A DNA stretch of 47,602 nt from an uncultured Methanosarcinales archaeon (GCA_964461035.1 CAYWRI010000004.1:342-47943), one strand, 5' to 3'. Counted from the stretch's first letter, positions 28,059 to 38,600 are shown. Numbers and translations are program-made. Notes: generated by a model from the sequence alone, not told the origin.

Positions 28059-28142
28059 GCCTCCGTAGCTTAGTGGTGGAGCGTGCGGCTGTTAAAGCTT
28101 ATTGAAACCGCAAGGTCACCAGTTCAAACCTGGTCGGAGGCG
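28059..28142 (+). tRNA. tRNA-Asn(GTT) with 12-nt intron at position 37/38 (28095-28106)
   Basis: Acceptor GCCTCCG/CGGAGGC, anticodon arm TGCGG-CT-GTT-A[AAGCTTATTGAA]A-CCGCA, T arm ACCAG-TTCAAAC-CTGGT. Confidence 0.92.
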
Positions 28143-28237: not shown

Positions 28238-28948
28238 CTATTTCTTCATGTAATATGCTCGTTTATCAGAATCAAACTTTTCTATTGCATATCTCAAGCA
28301 AGTTCTAGGCATTGTTTCATGGTATTTTTCAAGAAATCTTTCTTCAACAGCCTGATCTTTTTTACCTATTTCTCTAAGCATCCAACCAACAGCTTTATGT
28401 ATTAAATCATGTTTATCATAAAGCAGAATTCTTGCAATTTTAAGAGCATCTAAAAATTCATTATCCTTTATAAATGCAAAACAAGATAGTATGGCTATTC
28501 TCTTTTTCCAAAGATGTTTAGTTTTGGCAAACGTATACAGAATATCTTTATTTTTATTTTTTAAATATTTTCCAACTATGTTTGGGGCGGTTAAATCCAC
28601 AAGATCCCAATTATTTATATTATCTGCATTTCTAATATAAATATCAAATACTTTTTCCTGTTCTTCAGAATTTTTTTTATTATTTTTGAATTTAACTTCA
28701 AGTATTAATAATGCAATCAGTCTAAACTCATGTATTTTACTATTAAGCAATTCTTCTATTGTTTCGTAATCCGCAGTTTTTGCAAATTTTTTACTTATTG
28801 CTCTGGATTCGGGATTTCTAAGACCTATGAATTTATCATTTTCACCATACTCGCCTTTTCCTGTTTTGAAATATCTTTGTGAATGTTGTGCATATTCTTT
28901 ATTTGCCTTAAGCATTATTTCTTTTTCTATATTTTTTAAAATATTCAT
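28238..28948 (-). CDS. DNA alkylation repair enzyme (AlkD-like)
   Basis: YFKTGKGEYGE.D.F.G, NNWDLVD, LW.KRIA, HDLIHKAVGWMLREIGK, MPRT.LRYAIEKF. Confidence 0.92.
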   Translation of the reverse strand: MNILKNIEKEIMLKANKEYAQHSQRYFKTGKGEYGENDKFIGLRNPESRAISKKFAKTADYETIEELLNSKIHEFRLIALLILEVKFKNNKKNSEEQEKVFDIYIRNADNINNWDLVDLTAPNIVGKYLKNKNKDILYTFAKTKHLWKKRIAILSCFAFIKDNEFLDALKIARILLYDKHDLIHKAVGWMLREIGKKDQAVEERFLEKYHETMPRTCLRYAIEKFDSDKRAYYMKK

Positions 28949-29642: not shown

Positions 29643-29843
29643 AATTATTAGATATATTATAAAATTATTGGTGCATATTAGTGAACTGATAGCTTTTTCA
29701 GACTAATCTATTTTAGAATTTTTAATCTTATTTTTTTTCAGAATTTACAAAAAAATTAGCGCGTGAAGAGTTAAAAAATATAAAAAGAATATTTTTAATT
29801 ACTATACAATAAATTTATAAAAAAACCCATCTTCTTTATAGTT

Positions 29844-29942
29844 ATGGCAAAAATAAGTTATTATTTATCAACGGCCTCAGGCTCTAGAAAAGTTTTTAAG
29901 CTACTTCTTCATAATTGTAATAATATTAATAATTTAAATTAA
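29844..29942 (+). CDS. Putative Asn-rich leader peptide (uORF) of asnS, 32 aa
   Basis: MAKISYYLSTASGSRKVFKLLLHNCNNINNLN*; TTTATAAA at 29814, 30 nt before the ATG; oligo-T tracts between stop and asnS. Confidence 0.6.
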   Translation: MAKISYYLSTASGSRKVFKLLLHNCNNINNLN

Positions 29943-30013
29943 ACTTTTTAAACATCGTTTTTTTAATTTTACATAAAATTTATATAAAAATAACATTATT
30001 CAGAGGTAATAAA

Positions 30014-31333
30014 ATGGAAGAAACAAGATTAGATAAAAAATTCATAAGTATTAAAACAGCTTTAGAAAAAAAATCAGGAAAAGTCTCAGTTAGAGGCTGG
30101 TGTTATAGAGAACGAGGATCAAACGCAGTAAGATTTATTATTATGCGAGATTCTACAAATATTATTCAATGTGTTTTTGATAAAGAAAAAGTTTCTGAAG
30201 AAATGTGGGAACAAAGTCAAAAGATAAAAATGGAAGCGTCTTTTCAAGTGACCGGAGAACTTTCAGAAAACTCTAAGGCGCCTACAGGTTATGAAATTCA
30301 TGTTGAAGAACTTGAAATAGTTGGATTATCAGATACATACCCAATATCCAAAGATTTTAGTCCTGAATTCTTACTTGACAACAGACATTTATGGTTAAGA
30401 AGTAGAAAAATGACTTCAATCTTGAAAATAAGAAGTACTGTTTTTGGAGCAATAGATGAATACTTTAAAACTAATGGTTTTTACGAATATCATTCTCCTG
30501 TTTTGCAGAGTGTTCAATGTGAAGGTGGTTCAACACTTTTCAATGTTGACTTCTTTGGTAAAAAAGGTGTTTTTTTAGCTCAAACTTGGCAATTATATGC
30601 AGAACCCGCAATCTTTGCACTTGAAAAAATATATACGATTGCGCCTTCTTTTAGAGCAGAAAAATCAAAAACATCAAGACACTTATGCGAATACTGGCAT
30701 GCTGAAATGGAAATGGCGTGGTCAACTTTTGAAGATATTCAAGATCATGGTGAAAAGTTAATAAAATTTATTGTTGCCACTGTTCTTGAAAAAAACAGTT
30801 CTGAACTCGAACTTCTAAAAAGAGACATAAATAAATTAAAACCTGTTGTTGAAAAACCTTTTGTTAGGATGACTTACAGTGAATCATTGATAATATTAAA
30901 AGAAAAATGTAATATAGAAATTCCTTGGGGTAAAGACTTGAGAACAATCGAAGAAGATAAATTATCATCTTTGTACGATGTTCCTATAATTTGTACAAAT
31001 TATCCCAAAGAAGTAAAAGCATTTTACATGATGCAAGATAATGAAGATCCAAGAACTGTTTTGGGTGTTGATTTTATAGCGCCTGAAGGTTATGGTGAAA
31101 TAATTGGTGGAAGCCAAAGAGAACATGACATAGAAAAAATCAAAAAAAATCTTCTTGATTCAGGAGAAAAGCCTGAAGAATATGAATTTTATATGGACAC
31201 AAGAAAATATGGTTCTGTTCCTCATGGAGGTTTTGGATTAGGTGTTGAAAGAGTAATATCTTGGGTTTGCGGTCTTGACAATATCAAAGATGCAATTCCA
31301 TTCCCAAGAACAATGCTAAGGTGGAAACCTTAG
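30014..31333 (+). CDS. asnS: Asparagine--tRNA ligase
   Basis: OB-fold N-terminus, RHLWLRS, EGGSTLF, FRAEKSKTSRHL.EYW, GYGEIIGGSQRE, PHGGFGLGVER, PFPR. Confidence 0.93.
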   Translation: MEETRLDKKFISIKTALEKKSGKVSVRGWCYRERGSNAVRFIIMRDSTNIIQCVFDKEKVSEEMWEQSQKIKMEASFQVTGELSENSKAPTGYEIHVEELEIVGLSDTYPISKDFSPEFLLDNRHLWLRSRKMTSILKIRSTVFGAIDEYFKTNGFYEYHSPVLQSVQCEGGSTLFNVDFFGKKGVFLAQTWQLYAEPAIFALEKIYTIAPSFRAEKSKTSRHLCEYWHAEMEMAWSTFEDIQDHGEKLIKFIVATVLEKNSSELELLKRDINKLKPVVEKPFVRMTYSESLIILKEKCNIEIPWGKDLRTIEEDKLSSLYDVPIICTNYPKEVKAFYMMQDNEDPRTVLGVDFIAPEGYGEIIGGSQREHDIEKIKKNLLDSGEKPEEYEFYMDTRKYGSVPHGGFGLGVERVISWVCGLDNIKDAIPFPRTMLRWKP

Positions 31334-31476
31334 TTTTCTTTCTTTCTTTGTTTTCATAAATAAAAAACAAACGTTTATTAATTGTTTTGGTTTCCTCTTC
31401 TTCTTATTATATTAAAAAAGAGGTTTGATGGCAAAATTTTAATAAATGCAAGCCTCTGACTTGTTCTACTAGGAAA

Positions 31477-33012
31477 ATGACAGATAGTGATGTAAGTGAA
31501 AGGAAACTTGAAGAAAGAATAGAATCATTTAGCTTAGTTTTTGCTCAACTGCCAGATCCAAAAATTATTATGGATGCTAATTTCAATATAATCTCAATTA
31601 ATAAACCATTTGAAGAGTTGTATGGTTATTCTTTGGAAGATGTTTTAGGAAAAAGACTTAGCTTGTTAAATGCTGAGCAAGTAACAAAAGAGATTCAGCA
31701 AGATATTTATAAAACCATTTCTACTAATGGAATATGGATAGGATCTCTCTTAAATATGACAAAATCTGGTCATAAGTTTATCTGTGAGACAAAGATTTCA
31801 GCATTAATTGATGAGCAGGGCATACCATTTGCTTATGTTGGAACTCAAACAGATATCACAGAAAAAAAGAAAGTAGAAAACTTAAAGGCTGTTCTATACC
31901 AAATTTCTGAAGCAGTAAGTTTTTCAAGTAGCCTTGAGGAGTTATTAGAAATTATTTGCAAAAAGGTCGATTTAATCATTGACACGACCAATTTCTATGT
32001 TGCACTTTACGATGAAGAAGATGATCTGTATTCTTTTCCTTATTGCATTGATGAACATGAAGAGTTGACGGAATTTACACCACAGCAACTTCGAAAAAGC
32101 CTCACTGACTATGTAAGAAGAACCGGTGCTCCTTTTATGTCTGATGATAAAACCGACAAAATGCTGAAACTAAATGGTGAAGTTGAACTTGTCGGCACTC
32201 CTTCTTATCAATGGCTTGGAGTACCCCTTAAAACAGCAAAATCAATTATCGGCGTGGTTGCGGTTCAAAGTTATTCTAACCCTGCCTTGTATACTTCAGA
32301 TGATTTGGAATTGATGACATTTGTATCAGAACAAATTGCACTTGCTATTGAGCACAAGCAGACTGAAGAAGAATTAAAAGAAAGCGAAGAAAAATACCGT
32401 CAGCTATTTGATAATAGTATAATTGGACAGTTTATCACAAAACCTGACGGAACAATACTTGATTGTAATCTGAAATTCGCACAGATGTTTGGATATGAAT
32501 CAAAAGAAGAAATCAAAAAAATGAGTGCTAAGGATTTATATCAAGATCAAAAGATGAGAAATAAGTTCTTATAAGAGATTGCAAAGTTGGGAAGAGTTAT
32601 GAATTATAAATCAAAATTCGAAAATATAATTATGGGGGAAACAATGCACACTCTAGAAAATTCATATGGGGTAACTGATGATACAGGAAAAATAATAAGA
32701 ATAGAAGGGTCAATACAAGATGTAACTGTTTTTAGAAATGCTGAAGAGTTAATTACTCGTGAAAGATTAGCACTGACCTATGCACATCACGTGGGTTCAC
32801 CACTTGGTGTATTAACTGCTGCTCTGGACTTTTTAGAAGATGAAATTAATGATTCTGACGACGGACGTGCTGCTTTTCGTGACGTAATGGCTGCTTATAA
32901 CCGAGCTTTATTAATTATTAAAAAAACACGAGACGCTCTTTTGTCTGATACAATAGAATATACAGGACAACTTGGAAAAAATACTATGTATAAAATTGGA
33001 GAAAAAAAATGA
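31477..33012 (+). pseudogene. PAS-GAF-PAS-HisKA sensor gene interrupted by an in-frame TAA (32572-32574) and lacking a HATPase domain
   Basis: ORFs 31477-32574 and 32587-33012 are in the same frame 12 nt apart; RNKFL*EIAKLGRV lies mid-PAS; H-box-like TYAHHVGSPLGVL near the end. Confidence 0.75.
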
Positions 33013-33524
33013 AACAAATTGAAATACCAGGTAAATATAACTCAAAGAGCTATATTGTGAATGTGGCTGATGCTGATGATAATAGGACTTTTAATATTAC
33101 GGTTATAGATGATGATGATTACATGCGTTGGGCATTAAACAAACAGATTGAAAAGAAATGGGTTAATAAGTCTGGCATCGCTAAAGACACATTAGATGGA
33201 GATATATGGACGTATAATCCTGTCATCGCTAAAGACACATTAGATGGAGAAATATTATTTGAAGAAGCAAAGAAGTTAGATGTTAGATTAGATATACTAA
33301 TTCAGGACATTAAAATGCCTGGAGGAATGCCAAATGGACTTGATTTTGTGGATAAAATACGAGAGGTATATGAAATAAATATGATTATTTTTATATCTGG
33401 AGCCGGTATGGAACCTGAAACAAAGAGAAGAATAGAAGAAGGAGGATATATGTTCTTCGAAAAAGATAGCCCCACTTTTTATAAAGATTTGAAACGTGTT
33501 ATTGACCAATACATATCAAAATAA
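33009..33524 (+). CDS. Response regulator receiver protein
   Basis: VIDDDDYMR, ILIQDIKMPG...GLDF, IFISG, FFEK; ATGA overlap with the sensor gene. Confidence 0.88.
   Translation: MKQIEIPGKYNSKSYIVNVADADDNRTFNITVIDDDDYMRWALNKQIEKKWVNKSGIAKDTLDGDIWTYNPVIAKDTLDGEILFEEAKKLDVRLDILIQDIKMPGGMPNGLDFVDKIREVYEINMIIFISGAGMEPETKRRIEEGGYMFFEKDSPTFYKDLKRVIDQYISK
33176..33250 (+). repeat. 27-bp direct repeat (48-bp period) inside the receiver gene
   Basis: CATCGCTAAAGACACATTAGATGGAGA at 33176-33202 and 33224-33250 (IAKDTLDG twice). Confidence 0.95.
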
Positions 33525-33640
33525 AAAGTCTGTGAAATTAATATTTTACGAAAATTCTTATTTTTCACGAACACTAAATATCAACATTCTTAGAATTAGA
33601 AAATAAATAAATTTAATAATTATGAATCATTAAAATAAAT

Positions 33641-34693
33641 TCAATCTTTAAAAGAATCCATTTCTTGTTTTATTCTTTCAGTGAAATGTTTAAAGTCTTC
33701 AGCACGTATATTAGCACCACAAGCGTTTTTGTGTCCTCCACCATATGCTGCTTCGAATTCAGGTAAAACTTTTTCTAAAACAGATCTAACATCATGTTTC
33801 TGAGATCGAAGAGAACAATGCATAAAATCAAATTTTTTCCTTGCAACAATTATAAATTTATCAGGATTTCTGTGTTGAATTTCATTACTTAATATTGCTG
33901 AGAATGAAAACTGTTCATCATCATATGTAAAAACTAATAATTCATCTTTTTTCTTTTTTACACTATTAATAAGCTCATCATATCGTTCATTCATGCTGTT
34001 AAAATGTTTATTTATGAATTTTGCTTTAGGAGAACTCACTTCCATAATTTCTATTGGATCAGTTATTCTGCTGAGGATTTTAACACAGGTATTTACTTTT
34101 TTTCTTGTGCCTTTTAAACAAGAATTAAATATTTTAACTAATCTTCCAATTTTTTGATCGAATAAAGCTTCAGAAGGATTTGTGATTTCAGGATTTAATA
34201 AACCAGGATATAATTCATTAAATTCTTTAGAAAAATCAGGAATATACCAATCTGAAATACAACCAACTTCTGCAATCCAAAGATTTTCAGGATTTTTCTT
34301 TTGAGTTATTTTATATGCCCAGAAACTTACAGGACTATTATCTTCTTTATCGTTTTTAAGAGGATTAAAATAATCTACTTTTCTGGACTCATCCGTAATT
34401 GGGTGATGATCAATCCACAAAATAGGAACTTTAGCTTTATCAATAAATTCTTCAGAAACTTGGGGTTTATCTAATATGATTATTCTATCTGGTGCATATT
34501 CTTCTACATTTCTTAAATATTGTGTGTTAAGATCGGGAGATGTTTTAATAGGTATTCCTTTGCCATCTCCAATATACTTGTAAACCATTAAAAAGCTACA
34601 TAATCCGTCTGGGTCATCGTCAAAAAAGATTAAAGGTCGGTGTGTATTATCAAGGATTTCTCTTATTTTTTTAATTTCATCATTGCTTATCAT
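33641..34693 (-). CDS. DHH/DHHA1-family phosphoesterase
   Basis: DDDPDG, ILD, IDHH, SLRS, GGGHKNACGA. Confidence 0.92.
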   Translation of the reverse strand: MISNDEIKKIREILDNTHRPLIFFDDDPDGLCSFLMVYKYIGDGKGIPIKTSPDLNTQYLRNVEEYAPDRIIILDKPQVSEEFIDKAKVPILWIDHHPITDESRKVDYFNPLKNDKEDNSPVSFWAYKITQKKNPENLWIAEVGCISDWYIPDFSKEFNELYPGLLNPEITNPSEALFDQKIGRLVKIFNSCLKGTRKKVNTCVKILSRITDPIEIMEVSSPKAKFINKHFNSMNERYDELINSVKKKKDELLVFTYDDEQFSFSAILSNEIQHRNPDKFIIVARKKFDFMHCSLRSQKHDVRSVLEKVLPEFEAAYGGGHKNACGANIRAEDFKHFTERIKQEMDSFKD

Positions 34694-34747
34694 TAAACCC
34701 TAAGAAAAAACACAATATTTAAAAATGTGTTTGTTTTCTTCGAATAA

Positions 34748-35016
34748 GTAGGCAAGTAGCTAATTTTCGCTCCTAGAGTGAGGAAAGTCTGCCCACTATA
34801 AAAGGTTAGCACAAATGTGTGTTCTGAAAAGAACGGCAACCACTCAGAAACGGTACCTCTTAAGTTAAGAATGATGGATTAAATCCGGACATTTCTTAAG
34901 GATGGTTGAAACGGTGAGCCCTAACTAGTGCAAGTCGTTGTGGCGCTTAGTAGAATATTAGCAAGGTCCATCCAGCATGCTTGGGATCTACAGAAGGCAG
35001 CTTATAACTTGTCTAC
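34748..35016 (+). ncRNA. rnpB: RNase P RNA (compact archaeal type)
   Basis: P1 GTAGGCAAGT/ACTTGTCTAC; GAGGAAAGTCTGCC (CR-I), CAGAAAC, TGAAACGG, AGTAGAAT, ACAGAAGGCAGCTTA (CR-V) with P4 complementarity CTGCC/GGCAG. Confidence 0.93.
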
Positions 35017-35040
35017 ACTTTTATTAAAAAGAGGTCGAAA

Positions 35041-35694
35041 ATGAGAAAATTCCTAATATTAATTTCTTTACTTAGTTTATCAGTTATATTATTATCTTCA
35101 TGTGGAACAAAGTATATTTGTGCTGATGGTTCAGAAGTTTCTGATGCTGCATCATGTCCATATGATGAATTATCTAAAGTAGCTGAGAGAGAAGCAACCA
35201 AATATGCAGAAGATTATGTTAAAGCCTATGTTAGATACCTTGATATGGCTACAACAACTGTGAACACTTATAGAGAATTAGGAAACTATCGTGTTAATTT
35301 TGTTCTATCTGAAAAATCAGGAGAAGCACACGAGGTAATAATACAAATTGACAGAATGACTGGAACACCTTCATGTGTTTTTGGATGTGATATTTTTATT
35401 CCTAAAATAAATTCTTTTTCTGCGATTTACAATTCATCATTCATATCAGAAAGAAATTCGAGATACTTAAACATAGTTTATGTTGTTGAAGATTCAGATA
35501 TAATTTCTTGTGAAGGAACATACACTACTGAATCAGATGAAGGAATGGAAACTCAGGATTGTATTTTAGGTAAACTTATTACGGAAGATTATGATCTTCC
35601 AGTAGAATTAATAACTTCTTACGAAGAAAACTCTGAGTTAATTGTCGATTGGACAGAGGGTAAAGCAGCCTACACGCTAGAGATTCTTGAGTGA
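35041..35694 (+). CDS. Putative lipoprotein
   Basis: Signal peptide with LSSC lipobox; CADGSEV....CP motif; GAGGT SD. Confidence 0.75.
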   Translation: MRKFLILISLLSLSVILLSSCGTKYICADGSEVSDAASCPYDELSKVAEREATKYAEDYVKAYVRYLDMATTTVNTYRELGNYRVNFVLSEKSGEAHEVIIQIDRMTGTPSCVFGCDIFIPKINSFSAIYNSSFISERNSRYLNIVYVVEDSDIISCEGTYTTESDEGMETQDCILGKLITEDYDLPVELITSYEENSELIVDWTEGKAAYTLEILE

Positions 35695-35987
35695 TTTTTT
35701 ATTTTTTATTTTTTAATAAATGTTTGCTAAAGTTTTATAAAAGATGCTGCATTCCTATTTATTAAGAGATAATAATAATATTCTGTGATTCAATCTTTGA
35801 ATATTTCTTTTAATTAATATTTCGACAAATAAATCTTTTATTTGTAAAAAATTTTGTGATTTGACTAAATCTACAATTTTGGAAAACTAACCGAATTCAT
35901 TTACTCCTTTTTGTGCTAATTGAATTTATAGACTTTTTTATTAGAAATGTTATTATCTTCTGAATTAATTATACGAGGTATACTAAA

Positions 35988-36179
35988 ATGATAAATATGT
36001 ATTTAAACAATGGTGATTGCAATTACTATAAAATAAAACAATTTAAAAATGAACCAATGGCTACGGCAGGAGATAAACAAGATGGTTTGCAATCACGTAT
36101 CTACAATGGTAAAGGTCTTAAAATTATTGATAAAATTAATTATGACCATAACCATGATCATACGTTTAGTGATAAATAG
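35988..36179 (+). CDS. Small hypothetical protein
   Basis: GAGGT SD upstream, T-rich tract after the stop; 63 aa ending DHNHDH. Confidence 0.45.
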   Translation: MINMYLNNGDCNYYKIKQFKNEPMATAGDKQDGLQSRIYNGKGLKIIDKINYDHNHDHTFSDK

Positions 36180-36217
36180 TTTTTTTAATTTTATCTTTTC
36201 TATTTTTTAAAGTTAAT

Positions 36218-36299
36218 ATCAAGCTCTGCTTGATTTTTACCAAAGCAATGCTTTGGTCTTTACCAGGTGTTGCCTGGCAATAGCTGAGCAAAGCTTAGC
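36218..36299. repeat. Array of four triloop palindromes phased at 22/22/21 bp
   Basis: ATCAAGC-TCT-GCTTGAT, ACCAAAGC-AAT-GCTTTGGT, CCAGGT-GTT-GCCTGG, GCTGAGC-AAA-GCTTAGC; centres at 36226, 36248, 36270, 36291. Confidence 0.85.
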
Positions 36300-36319
36300 A
36301 TAGATATGTAAAAATAAAA

Positions 36320-36344
36320 AAATAATTCTTAGAAATAATTAATA
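36320..36344 (+). repeat. 25-bp direct repeat, copy 1
   Basis: AAATAATTCTTAGAAATAATTAATA, identical to 38642-38666. Confidence 0.85.
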
Positions 36345-36414
36345 GAATAACTCAATCTAAACTACTTATGCAGATAAATATTTGCAGTATTCACACATTT
36401 CTTGTAAATAAGAA

Positions 36415-37296
36415 TTAATTATGATTTAATTCAACTTCACCCTTATCAAAGTTAATCGTAACATATTGCCCTTCTTTAATAAGTTTTGTTGCATTTTTTA
36501 CATTCATAATTACTGGAACATCAAATTCTTGAGAAACAAAAGATATGTGAGAAGTAAATCCTCCAGACTCAGTTATAACCCCAATTAATTTATTGAAATG
36601 CACAATTTGTTTTACACTAAATTCGTCTGTAACTAAAATCATTGGGTCAAATATTTTTCTTGAGTTTCCTTCTTTAAATATGATTGCTTTACCTGTAATT
36701 GAGCCTTCACCTAATGAAACTCCATGAAGTTCCTTATTGGATTCAAGAGGTTTCATGCCTGAATATTTATCGATTATTCTTGTACATTCATCAATCACAA
36801 TTTGTTCTTTTTTTAATTCAGCTAAGTTTTTAAGATCTTCAATAGCATCTAAAAGTCTTAAGCCTTTATAAATTCCCAATCTGTTTTCATCACAATTACT
36901 AAGTTTAATATCCACAATTTTTAAATTAGATAAAATCGAGCAATAATAAATATGAAAAGTATTAATCGTTTTTTTAATTCTGTCTTTTTTTAATTGTTCA
37001 AATAAATCTGCACTACAAGGAGTAATATCTAAATCATAATTCTGTTCTGTAAAAAAATTCATATATTGTTTAAAATATTTTGTTTTTCTTTGAGGAATTG
37101 ACTCTGCAAAATCTAAAAAAGATGGTTTCCAAGGAAGTTTTGCTGCATCAACAAATATATTTATGTGATTTTTTCTTAATTGTACTTTATAACCTGCAAA
37201 ATTTCTTGCATGTTTTCCTGTTACTATCCAATCTTCTTGTTCTATTCCCCAACTTCTTAAAAGTTTGATAATTTCTTCAAATATTTGAAAATTCAT
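36415..37296 (-). CDS. Degenerate NTase-like domain fused to a PEP-utilizer mobile (phospho-His) domain
   Basis: C-terminal ITESGGFTSHISFVSQEFDVPVIM; N-terminal DWIVTGKHA..AGY...HINIFVD..LPW similar to 2280-4619. Confidence 0.78.
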   Translation of the reverse strand: MNFQIFEEIIKLLRSWGIEQEDWIVTGKHARNFAGYKVQLRKNHINIFVDAAKLPWKPSFLDFAESIPQRKTKYFKQYMNFFTEQNYDLDITPCSADLFEQLKKDRIKKTINTFHIYYCSILSNLKIVDIKLSNCDENRLGIYKGLRLLDAIEDLKNLAELKKEQIVIDECTRIIDKYSGMKPLESNKELHGVSLGEGSITGKAIIFKEGNSRKIFDPMILVTDEFSVKQIVHFNKLIGVITESGGFTSHISFVSQEFDVPVIMNVKNATKLIKEGQYVTINFDKGEVELNHN

Positions 37297-37418
37297 AACA
37301 CGATAAAAATAGAGATAATATATAAATGTTTCTTTAAATAACTTAGTTCATAATATTAATATTAACTAAATAGCCATTTCTCAAAAAACTTATAAATAAA
37401 AAGTAATTATCTAAAGAT

Positions 37419-37502
37419 ATGAGAATTTCAACAATAAAATTAAATGCTTTAAATATGTGTAATCAAGGTTTACTTAGATTGAATTCTTGTTGTTGTTTCT
37501 AA
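37419..37502 (+). CDS. Putative Cys-rich leader peptide (uORF) of cysteine synthase, 27 aa
   Basis: MRISTIKLNALNMCNQGLLRLNSCCCF*; CTTATAAA at 37389, 30 nt before the ATG; TTTTTCTTTT tract downstream. Confidence 0.7.
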   Translation: MRISTIKLNALNMCNQGLLRLNSCCCF

Positions 37503-37584
37503 TAAATAATCTTAATTATAAAACTTATTAATTAATTTTTCTTTTACAAATATATTATTTAGGAGGTAATTAAAATGATGAAAG

Positions 37585-38493
37585 GTGATTATACCTGTAA
37601 AAAATATACTTGAAACAATAGGAAAAACACCCCTTGTTAAAATAAATAGATTAAATAAAAATAAAAATGTGAACATATTTGCAAAACTTGAGAGTTTTAA
37701 TCCTAGTGGAAGTATAAAAGATAGAATCGCTTTCAGAATGATAGAAGATGCAGAGATATCAGGAGAATTAACTAAAGAAAAAACAATAATTGAAGCAACT
37801 TCAGGAAATAAGGGTATTGGTTTGGCACTAGTAAGTGCAGTTAAAGGATATAACTTAGTGGTTGTTATGTCAGAATCAGTAAGTGTAGAAAGGCAAAAAA
37901 TTCTCAAAGCATATGGTTCAAAAATAATTCTTACTGATCCAATGAAAGGAACAGATGGCGCTATAGAAAAAGTAAGATTGATTCTAAGAGAAAATCCTGA
38001 AAAATACTATAATCCTAATCAATTTTGCAATGAAAATAATGTTCTTTCACATTATAATACTGCTGAAGAAATAATTTATCAGATGCAAGGTAAAATAGAT
38101 GTTTTTATTGCAGCTAAAGGAACTACAGGAACATTGATGGGTATTGGAAAAAAACTAAAAGAATTCAACTCTAAAATAAAAATCATAGGGGTTGAACCAA
38201 ACCTAAAACACAAAATTCAGGGTTTAAAAAATATGAAAGAATCAATAATTCCTAAAATATACAATCCTAATATTCTGGATAAAACCATTTTTATTGAAGA
38301 TGAAAATGCATTTCAAACAACAAGAGATCTTGCAAAACATGAAGGTCTTTTTGTTGGTATGAGTTCTGGGGCTACAATGTATGTCGCTTTAAGAATTGCA
38401 GAAAAAATGCATCAGGGAAATATTGTTGTTATTTTTCCAGATAATGGGGAAAAATATCTTAGTACAAATTTATTTATTACAACAGGGGTTTAA
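37585..38493 (+). CDS. cysM: Cysteine synthase (O-acetylserine sulfhydrylase, CysK/CysM family); start ambiguous
   Basis: IGKTPLV, AKLESFNPSGSIKDR, EATSGN, GTTGT, GMSSGA, PDNGEKYLST; some conserved positions deviate (SGNKG for SGNTG). Confidence 0.9.
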   Translation: MIIPVKNILETIGKTPLVKINRLNKNKNVNIFAKLESFNPSGSIKDRIAFRMIEDAEISGELTKEKTIIEATSGNKGIGLALVSAVKGYNLVVVMSESVSVERQKILKAYGSKIILTDPMKGTDGAIEKVRLILRENPEKYYNPNQFCNENNVLSHYNTAEEIIYQMQGKIDVFIAAKGTTGTLMGIGKKLKEFNSKIKIIGVEPNLKHKIQGLKNMKESIIPKIYNPNILDKTIFIEDENAFQTTRDLAKHEGLFVGMSSGATMYVALRIAEKMHQGNIVVIFPDNGEKYLSTNLFITTGV

Positions 38494-38532
38494 TATTCCT
38501 CAGTTTTACTGAGATATTTAGATTGTAATGAC

Positions 38533-38600
38533 CAAAAATACTAAAATCTGCTAATATCCTTGAGTTTTGTTTCGAGGAGTAGTAAATATTAGTATTTTTG
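38533..38600. terminator. Long imperfect inverted repeat between convergent cysM and rps27e
   Basis: CAAAAATACTAA...TCCTTGA / TCGAGGA...TTAGTATTTTTG; a smaller CTCAGT-TTT-ACTGAG hairpin lies at about 38499-38513. Confidence 0.5.

Follow-up and report, generated by a model that had tools for sequence, protein, structure and literature searches.

Candidate leader peptides with cognate-codon tails upstream of asnS and cysK in an uncultured archaeon

The window analysed here is a 47,602-nt stretch of an archaeal genome (contig C4, positions 342-47943; we refer to the genome carrying it as G000) in which asnS and a cysK-type cysteine synthase gene are each preceded by a short open reading frame (ORF) that ends in a cluster of codons for the amino acid concerned. 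This observation is real and non-random, and the ORF upstream of cysK belongs to an archaeal family that is widespread and apparently undescribed. We consider it on balance probable that both ORFs encode leader peptides of attenuators that work by ribosome stalling and control read-through of a T-rich, terminator-like element. A first-pass annotation of the window had proposed a genome-wide leader-peptide system acting by translation-coupled attenuation; that interpretation appears right in kind and over-stated in scope, and its mechanism is something we infer from sequence.

The two leaders in the window and in their genome

The features of the two loci are as follows.

29814-29821, + strand: TATA-like box of the Asn leader, TTTATAAA; TTTATA at 29814, first base 30 nt before the ATG
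29844-29942, + strand: Asn leader ORF (uORF1), 32 codons plus TAA, encoding MAKISYYLSTASGSRKVFKLLLHNCNNINNLN
29943-30013, + strand: 71-nt spacer between the Asn leader and asnS, with T5 at 29945-29949, T7 at 29958-29964 and the Shine-Dalgarno (SD) sequence GAGGT at 30003-30007
30014-31333, + strand: asnS, asparagine--tRNA ligase (NCBIfam NF003037, AsnRS equivalog, 487.9 bits, cut-off 414)
37390-37397, + strand: TATA-like box of the Cys leader, TTATAAAT; TTATAA at 37390, first base 29 nt before the ATG
37419-37502, + strand: Cys leader ORF (uORF2), 27 codons plus TAA, ending in LNSCCCF
37503-37574, + strand: 72-nt spacer between the Cys leader and ATG 37575, with the T-rich tract TTTTTCTTTT at 37536-37545 and the SD AGGAGGT at 37561-37567
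37575-37613, + strand: second short ORF (uORF-B), 12 codons, encoding MMKGDYTCKKYT; out of frame with cysK and overlapping its GTG start
37585-38493, + strand: cysK/cysM-type cysteine synthase gene, GTG start (TIGR01136, cysKM subfamily, 363.9 bits, cut-off 344.15)

A check of the sequence located both ORFs, the TATA-like boxes, the T-runs and the SD contexts as first annotated, and the identities of the two genes were borne out by scores above the equivalog cut-off for asnS and the subfamily cut-off for the cysteine synthase. Six of the last nine residues of the Asn leader are Asn. The start of cysK had to be revised. ATG 37575, to which it had been assigned, is in the wrong frame and opens the 12-codon uORF-B. 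The CysK frame is closed by a TGA just upstream and has GTG 37585 as its sole start, which makes the leader-to-cysK spacer 82 nt. The near-identical spacing of 71 and 72 nt is thus partly an artefact, and in relatives the leader-to-gene distance runs from about 10 to more than 300 nt. The SD context that the two genes had been said to share has no special meaning either: that of asnS, GAGGTAATAAAATG, is identical at the asnS ribosome-binding site of another genome, and that of ATG 37575 is GGAGGTAATTAAAATG.

The G000 assembly comprises 1.26 Mb on 34 contigs, with 28% GC and 92.5% completeness, and crude gene calling yielded 1192 genes. Its promoters have an A-rich B recognition element (BRE) at -37 to -33, TATA at -30 to -23 and T both at -12/-11 and, just ahead of the ATG, at -1. 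As the TATA hexamer of genes that lack an SD mostly starts 27-32 nt before the ATG, in a sharp peak, we conclude that leaderless mRNAs are the norm in this genome; in SD-containing genes TATA lies ~42-50 nt from the ATG. About two thirds of the genes with long upstream regions have no SD and look leaderless. The TATA spacing of both upstream ORFs (uORFs), 30 nt for Asn and 29 nt for Cys, is of the leaderless type.

The matched amino acid and near-identical spacing had been called hard to attribute to chance. Of 504 genes whose upstream DNA measures 150 nt or more, 267 have an ATG ORF of 15-45 codons there, so the presence of a uORF is ordinary. The cognate enrichment, by contrast, is an outlier among 386 uORFs. 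The last 10 codons contained no Asn in 174 of these, one in 150, two in 53, three in 7, four in 1 and six in 1, the last being the asnS uORF. Similarly, CCC was present in 1 of the 386, the cysK uORF.

We also ranked 81 short ORFs (sORFs) with leaderless TATA spacing by tail enrichment for any amino acid, with the downstream genes not yet known; downstream genes were annotated for ranks 1-4 and for seven lower-ranked sORFs, ranks 5-11 being left out. Rank 1 was Asn x6 before asnS, and rank 4 was Cys x3 before cysK. Rank 3 was Val x4 (MRVNVILVVQ; four of the last eight residues) before a gene then shown to encode ValRS. Rank 2, Thr x4 in MMETTCTLT, precedes a PLD/NucT-type nuclease gene and is not cognate, and none of the seven lower-ranked sORFs was cognate. 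As a separate candidate, the sORF upstream of metG was rejected as a Met leader because it is not Met-rich. As the first-pass annotation had claimed, both ORFs of the window look like genuine leaderless leader ORFs with C-terminal cognate codons.

The Cys leader family and the element behind its stop codon

The relatives of G000 form one order with small genomes of 0.6-2.7 Mb (DPANN, Woesearchaeota/Nanoarchaeota-type), and the closest named cysK loci are in Woesearchaeota and Nanoarchaeota metagenome-assembled genomes (MAGs). The distribution of cysK is patchy: it was found in 62 of the 401 genomes of the order (E<=1e-60) and in none of three genus mates. Usable upstream DNA was available for 56 cysK loci. 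With a first filter, an ATG ORF with at least two Cys in the last six residues, a Cys-run sORF was found at 40 of the 56, or at 38 of 53 when three unpublished genomes were left out. A stricter filter, at least two adjacent Cys within the last seven residues of an ORF of at most 75 amino acids, retained 39 of the 56. When one pipeline was applied to control genes as well, Cys-run sORFs were recovered from 25 of 37 cysK upstream regions, 0 of 24 asnS regions and 0 of 28 valS regions.

Examples of the encoded peptides are MQFTCCC, MKHTLCCC, MTIKQCCCC, MTKTTCCCDCCCC and MKKATKKQKCECCCCCKCDCC, each ending at its stop codon. The median length of 36 leaders is 14 amino acids (range 7-71), and in 24 of the 36, which are predicted to be leaderless, a TATA-like hexamer precedes the ATG by 27-33 nt. 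Neither N-terminal sequence nor length is conserved; what is conserved is the terminal Cys run beside the stop. The Cys codons are TGT in 108 cases and TGC in 33, and the reading frame is kept through interruptions of the run (CCCDCCCC, CCFCCC). The longer Cys leaders of four Woesearchaeota MAGs (L357, L394, L402 and L429) share the ending MIRQDYYRCYCCC, a peptide conserved beyond the Cys run; the gene downstream in L357 is cysE.

Right after the stop codon, most leaders carry an element of the form (A)ATTCTTTCATTGTYTTAGTTTT. In 27 of 34 leaders TTC begins 0-7 nt from the stop; CAT follows the stop at 5-10 nt in 24 of the 34, and the consensus is AATTCTTTCATTGTYTTAGTTTT. At 700 ordinary gene ends of G000, CATTG occurred six times and the full TTCT..CATTG never, while the 5-mers most enriched after ordinary stops were TTTTT (3.7x) and TTCTT (2.8x). 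On these counts the first half of the element resembles the gene-end signal of the lineage and the CATTG half is special to leaders. Three other roles for the element were considered by eye and rejected. Pairing of its CAU with the 5'-terminal AUG had no consistent extension past 3-4 bp; an internal promoter (TTCT as -10-region element, CATT|G as initiator) lacked TATA/BRE at -25 to -37; and the length of an antisense mini-ORF (ATGAAAGAATTCTAA) was not conserved.

A pattern combining Cys-Cys-stop with the element had 31 matches in 30 of the 401 genomes, compared to 4 for the reversed pattern. Where the match was not followed by cysK, the next gene was serine O-acetyltransferase (cysE) at all six loci tested, once with cysS behind it. 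cysS stands directly behind a Cys leader at 2 of 28 loci and behind a leader-cysK pair at 2 more. A tRNA gene follows the leader at 13 of 48 loci (11 of 46 without the unpublished genomes), and ARAGORN identified tRNA-Cys(GCA) at 10 of these 13. The tRNAs at L043, L148 and L151 are intron-bearing and were called Lys, Ile and Cys, respectively, the first two being ambiguous. At 10 of the 13 loci the tRNA starts 22-35 nt after the leader stop, a gap in which a promoter for the tRNA alone would not fit, and the mini-ORF therefore lies within the 5' leader of the pre-tRNA.

A stricter pattern was also run against the genomes of 185,579 species; it matched at least 120 stretches, of which the first 80 were examined. 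These contained 81 matches, 22 of them leader-like. In 14 of the 81 a tRNA-Cys, cysK or cysE lay downstream, and 13 of the 14 were leader-like; the remaining locus, L404, lacks a leader that begins with ATG. The 14 stem without exception from low-GC records under the label Woesearchaeota or Nanoarchaeota, or from MAGs whose labels were assigned automatically.

Several further observations were made at these loci. The tRNA-Cys genes adjacent to leaders often have introns of ~30 nt or more (L151, L148, L177, L043 and L055/L135), and at L055/L135 the tRNA lies upstream of the leader, not downstream. In a Candidatus Moraniibacteriota MAG (L068, a CPR bacterium) cysK is preceded by a Cys-rich leader, MINQKINQIMMCCMCFC, behind which a classical hairpin-plus-U terminator takes the place of the archaeal element; this locus represents a bacterial counterpart beside the archaeal form. 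Open frames of 776-804 amino acids that contain cysK were found at G043:C89:1332-3056 and also in G121:C3 and G092:C2; in G043 a cysS match lies within the same 804-amino-acid frame, which suggests that some relatives encode CysK-CysRS fusion proteins.

Proposed mechanism and competing explanations

In the reading that we favour, each leader would be the first, leaderless ORF of a transcript starting ~30 nt downstream of its own TATA box. When Cys-tRNA or Asn-tRNA is scarce, the ribosome would stall on the terminal run of cognate codons and cover the sequence right behind the leader stop, which is T-rich and terminator-like and reads TTCT..CATTGT(T/C)TTAGTTTT in the wider family. RNA polymerase would then read through into the downstream gene, to be translated from its strong SD site. 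With a plentiful supply of the amino acid, translation of the leader would be completed and the ribosome would leave, and the naked nascent RNA would allow termination at oligo-U, possibly with the help of aCPSF1/FttA, for which G000 does encode a gene (840.5 bits, cut-off 580.2). Archaeal termination needs no hairpin. We infer the stalling, the direction of regulation and an output at the level of transcription read-through rather than of translation or RNA stability. Occlusion of a termination signal is favoured on two grounds, the geometry around the stop and the linkage to tRNA genes. As the Cys run and the T-rich element adjoin the stop from opposite sides, a stalled ribosome would cover the element; and as the leader also precedes tRNA genes, which are not translationally regulable, the output would be at the transcript level.

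It is unlikely, in our judgement, that the stalled ribosome instead unmasks the SD, as in translational attenuation of the mycobacterial type, in which leader and gene are co-transcribed and a structure or a pyrimidine-rich anti-SD segment hides the SD until the ribosome opens it. Both asnS and cysK do have strong SDs although most genes are leaderless, and SD sequestration by Cys codons is the mechanism shown for polycysteine leaderless sORFs (10.1101/834739). In addition, the T-rich tract pairs with the SD region in the minimum-free-energy fold of G000 cysK, and spacers of 10-20 nt cannot hold a terminator. However, in that fold the partner of the Cys run is the 5' part of the leader itself and not the SD, folds are no more stable than those of shuffled sequences, and the element lacks consistent complementarity to GGAGG. 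The combination of leader and element before tRNA genes also argues against SD unmasking, since translation control would be meaningless there.

A second alternative, which we regard as quite unlikely, is that a ribosome stalled near the leaderless 5' end blocks a 5'-to-3' exonuclease (RNase J/aCPSF2 type) and so raises the level of the downstream tRNA or mRNA. Ribosome stalling on the ermC leader stabilises mRNA in Bacillus subtilis. Transcript stabilisation would fit all of the architectures seen (tRNA genes, short spacers and long spacers), and a second beta-CASP nuclease homologue is encoded (C9:5764-7050, 319.5 bits), but the conserved TTCT..CATTGT exactly after the stop would be left unexplained. 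Very improbable indeed is a third explanation, that the products of the sORFs are small Cys-rich peptides with a function of their own, such as metal- or redox-active ones, rather than leaders. Conservation of the Cys runs speaks for it, but the ORFs can be as short as seven codons (MQFTCCC), only the terminal run and its position beside the stop are conserved, and the linkage is specific to Cys-tRNA and Cys-synthesis genes.

Several results weigh against occlusion of a terminator. T4 within 30 nt of the stop is not in excess behind leaders (16 of 34, compared to 348 of 700 ordinary genes). In the G000 Cys leader itself CATTGT is not evident, and only a TTCT overlapping the stop was seen. At L154 and L135 the SD follows the leader stop by only 10-20 nt, which leaves no room for a terminator, so a different mode is needed at these loci. 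Alternative terminator/antiterminator hairpins over the leader ORF were found neither in the two G000 leaders nor in 36 family leaders. RNA folding compared to shuffled sequences was not significant for the Asn leader region (z +0.63) or the Cys leader region (z +1.18), and in the family the mean z was 0.07 (n=36), with only 4 loci below -2. Two marine metagenome runs contained the stretch from 29700 to 38600; no RNA run did. With respect to scope, Pfam searches of G000 identified 19 genes of the aminoacyl-tRNA synthetase (aaRS) type (GluRS and ArgRS were not found), and 17 of the 19 lack a cognate-rich upstream ORF, asnS and valS being the exceptions, which does not bear out a genome-wide system. 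The remaining aaRS-type genes mostly have short, leaderless-type upstream regions, and neither CysRS nor tRNA-Cys of G000 has a Cys leader.

Structured RNA was sought in other ways as well. A search of 29780-30060 with the Rfam covariance models returned no match, and the sole match in 37350-37650 was to a snoRNA model at 23.5 bits, below its gathering score of 50. A hairpin around the Cys codons, a perfect AAAACAAUG/CAUUGUUUU stem at L168, was discarded as a conserved feature because it is not general in the family, as the z values above indicate.

For asnS and valS, in G000 only, independent transcription would be an alternative. The sORF would then be a small unit of its own or a chance ORF, with T-runs as its own terminator, the gene would have its own promoter, and the Asn tail would be AT-rich low-complexity sequence. 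This appears to be a real alternative for asnS because every one of the four genus mates has a conserved TATA-like box between the sORF and the gene; three have it ~42 nt before the ATG, the SD-gene distance, and G000 has it at 35 nt (TTTATA, 29979-29984, within the leader spacer). In the genus mate G001 the homologous sORF, whose offset is unchanged, encodes MARLTTYMQTARGFKKSLLLLTPNR, with a single Asn in place of the run, and is followed by TTCTATCATTA. In addition, AAT is common in intergenic DNA of 25% GC, and an Asn-run leader was found at only 1 of 55 further asnS loci. The valS gene of G000 has TATA-like boxes and no SD. These findings, too, count against attenuation at the two genes. 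Nevertheless, we consider independent transcription improbable. The Asn tail is unique among the 386 uORFs and sits at the one AsnRS gene, the internal TATA of G000, at 35 nt, is off both promoter-distance peaks, the sORF is conserved with G001 at the codon level through synonymous third-base changes, and CATCG (29953-29957) followed by T7 (29958-29964) is a fair match to the CATYGT and T-rich element of the family. When the pattern CAT[CT]GTYYY was tried on G000 intergenic DNA, 21 sites were obtained, and only the asnS one sits after an sORF and before a gene.

Leaders for amino acids other than Cys were looked for at orthologous loci. Cognate valS leaders are present at 2 of 28 loci, G000 and G022; that of G022 is MICVVVVVA, followed after the stop by CATTGTTCTCTAGTT, which includes CATTGT, with the SD 42 nt from the stop. 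One of seven thrS loci has a cognate leader, MAATKFLTMNTTTM (ending MNTTTM), followed by ATTCATCGTCTTCT and then an SD; its element can also be given as CATCGTCTT. For asnS, G000 is the sole strong case among 24 loci of the order, and the single case among the 55 metagenome loci ends in HKFNNN, followed by AATTCT and an SD. Ile-rich sORFs before ileS (3 of 29 loci) were set aside as uninformative, Ile making up 10.5% of uORF residues; at one of these loci, L531, a clear promoter separates the sORF from ileS. The module looks general to the lineage, conserved for Cys and sporadic for the others, whose versions have perhaps evolved repeatedly. The proposal that the mechanism is general in the lineage gains from the order-wide Cys leader and from the Val, Thr and Asn runs elsewhere. 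The Asn leader of the window is not conserved.

At cysK, the strong SD AGGAGGT serves uORF-B, whose Cys codon is at 37596-37598. The same layout was found at six cysK loci (G000, L045, L136, L056, L171 and L173), with peptides ending G(G/D)Y(R/T/P)C and a few further residues. In all six, CysK is in the +1 frame and its GTG start lies inside a conserved AAGGTG(G/A)TTAY; the Cys codon of uORF-B does not change, even though the CysK residues that overlap it do (G, P or R, then A or V). In 4 of the 6 the zero frame ends 26 nt after the GTG. The geometry, AGGTGAT-TAT-ACC-TGT in G000, is also found in four further loci, and L171 is without the SD-like part. The prfB (RF2) gene uses a programmed +1 frameshift at an internal SD-like element and UGA. 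uORF-B resembles it in having the SD-like AGGTGAT, TAT, a P-site codon and a potentially slow A-site codon, with the main ORF at +1 and an early end of the zero frame. It differs in having a Cys codon in place of the UGA stop, in lacking a slippery P-site codon (the codons are ACC, CGG and CCG), and in the presence of a GTG start in the +1 frame, which offers an ordinary alternative at the six loci known. Two readings of uORF-B are possible, a +1 frameshift site at a hungry codon and a uORF that overlaps the GTG start; the latter is the ordinary reading of the layout. The pattern AAGGTGRTTATNNNTGY, tried as a probe for further loci, was not specific: it matched 45 places, roughly as many as reversed-pattern controls, and the five matches inspected were all inside unrelated genes.

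The most comprehensive model is possible but doubtful as a whole. It would combine an archaeal leader-peptide attenuation in which the stalled ribosome shields the post-stop element (TTCT..CATTGT plus U-tracts) from oligo-U/aCPSF1/FttA termination, a single sensor co-regulating tRNA-Cys, cysK, cysE and cysS, re-use of the module for Val, Thr and Asn, and, in a subset that includes the window, a hungry Cys codon in uORF-B that shifts ribosomes +1 into CysK.

Related systems, other features of the window and significance

Leader-peptide attenuation is a textbook bacterial mechanism, and we know of no archaeal leader-peptide attenuator; a literature search for archaeal leader-peptide or uORF attenuation, in which subscription journals were not covered, returned only bacterial and eukaryotic cases. 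In the bacterial attenuators trpL, hisL, thrL and pheL, a short ORF rich in the regulated amino acid is followed by U-rich sequence. The archaeal leaders resemble these in their cognate enrichment before the gene (Asn 6/9, CCC, Val 4/8) and in the U-rich sequence behind, but they have no alternative hairpins, carry the regulatory codons at the very end of the ORF and have a leaderless start. The favoured model is closer to tnaC/Rho of E. coli, in that a ribosome held at the end of the leader masks an adjacent site for a termination factor. In the predicted archaeal case that factor would be aCPSF1/FttA, or the signal oligo-U, and the stall would be caused by codon starvation rather than by an arrest peptide. 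The T-box of Firmicutes is a functional analogue, with cis control of aaRS and Cys genes by cognate tRNA charging; it differs in its tRNA-binding RNA structure, and no such structure and no Rfam match was found in either leader.

The closest precedent is the 'Cys ribulon' of Mycobacterium smegmatis (Canestrari et al., bioRxiv 10.1101/834739), whose polycysteine leaderless sORFs are, according to that report, experimentally shown Cys-responsive attenuators. As described there, the leaderless sORF is the first cistron and has at least two consecutive Cys codons near its end, such sORFs stand before cysteine-metabolism operons at several independent loci, the ribosome senses Cys-tRNA, and the Cys codons sequester the SD. 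The archaeal sORFs share the consecutive Cys codons (SCCCF before the stop in G000; 39 of 56 cysK loci), and the position upstream of cysK, cysE, cysS and tRNA-Cys on the same strand; a leaderless start is predicted for them from the TATA spacing (29 nt in G000; 27-33 nt in 24 of 36). They differ in their archaeal (DPANN) hosts with TATA/BRE promoters, and in the post-stop TTCT..CATTGT, for which the accessible part of the mycobacterial report describes no counterpart. In addition, no Cys-codon/SD duplex was found in the archaeal leaders (z +1.18 in G000; family mean 0.07), and their occurrence before tRNA-Cys genes implies a transcript-level output in a system that is known from its sequences.

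G000 was identified as archaeal from ribosomal protein L44e and from an archaeal RNase P RNA that lies in the window.

34748-35016, + strand: archaeal RNase P RNA (Rfam RF00373, 142.8 bits), between a DHH-family gene and an ORF of 217 amino acids

That ORF (35041-35694) had no NCBIfam or Pfam match, nor did an ORF of 141 amino acids (32587-33012) between a PAS/GAF sensor gene and a receiver-domain gene; an ORF of 236 amino acids (28238-28948) had no NCBIfam match. The tRNA gene at 28059-28142 was called 'Stop (tta)' by ARAGORN without introns and 'Ser (tga)' with a non-canonical intron. Setting a 12-nt intron at the canonical 37/38 position gives the anticodon GTT. As the mature form would be without a long variable arm, a long-arm tRNA-Ser(tga) is present elsewhere and no other tRNA-Asn was found among 26 tRNAs, this is probably an intron-bearing tRNA-Asn(GUU). 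A tRNA-Ile(GAT) lies 9 nt downstream of it.

Dozens of independent DPANN loci carry the signature of an amino acid sensor whose components are archaeal: promoters with TATA boxes, leaderless initiation and T-rich ends that lack hairpins. A tRNA gene governed by an ORF within its own 5' leader has not, to our knowledge, been described; these loci, if functional, would be such a case. The findings also bear on cysteine supply in genome-reduced symbionts, many of which are without cysK. If functional, the leaders would further offer direct evidence for transcription-translation coupling in archaeal gene regulation and a natural system in which to study the interference of ribosomes with archaeal termination by FttA/aCPSF1.

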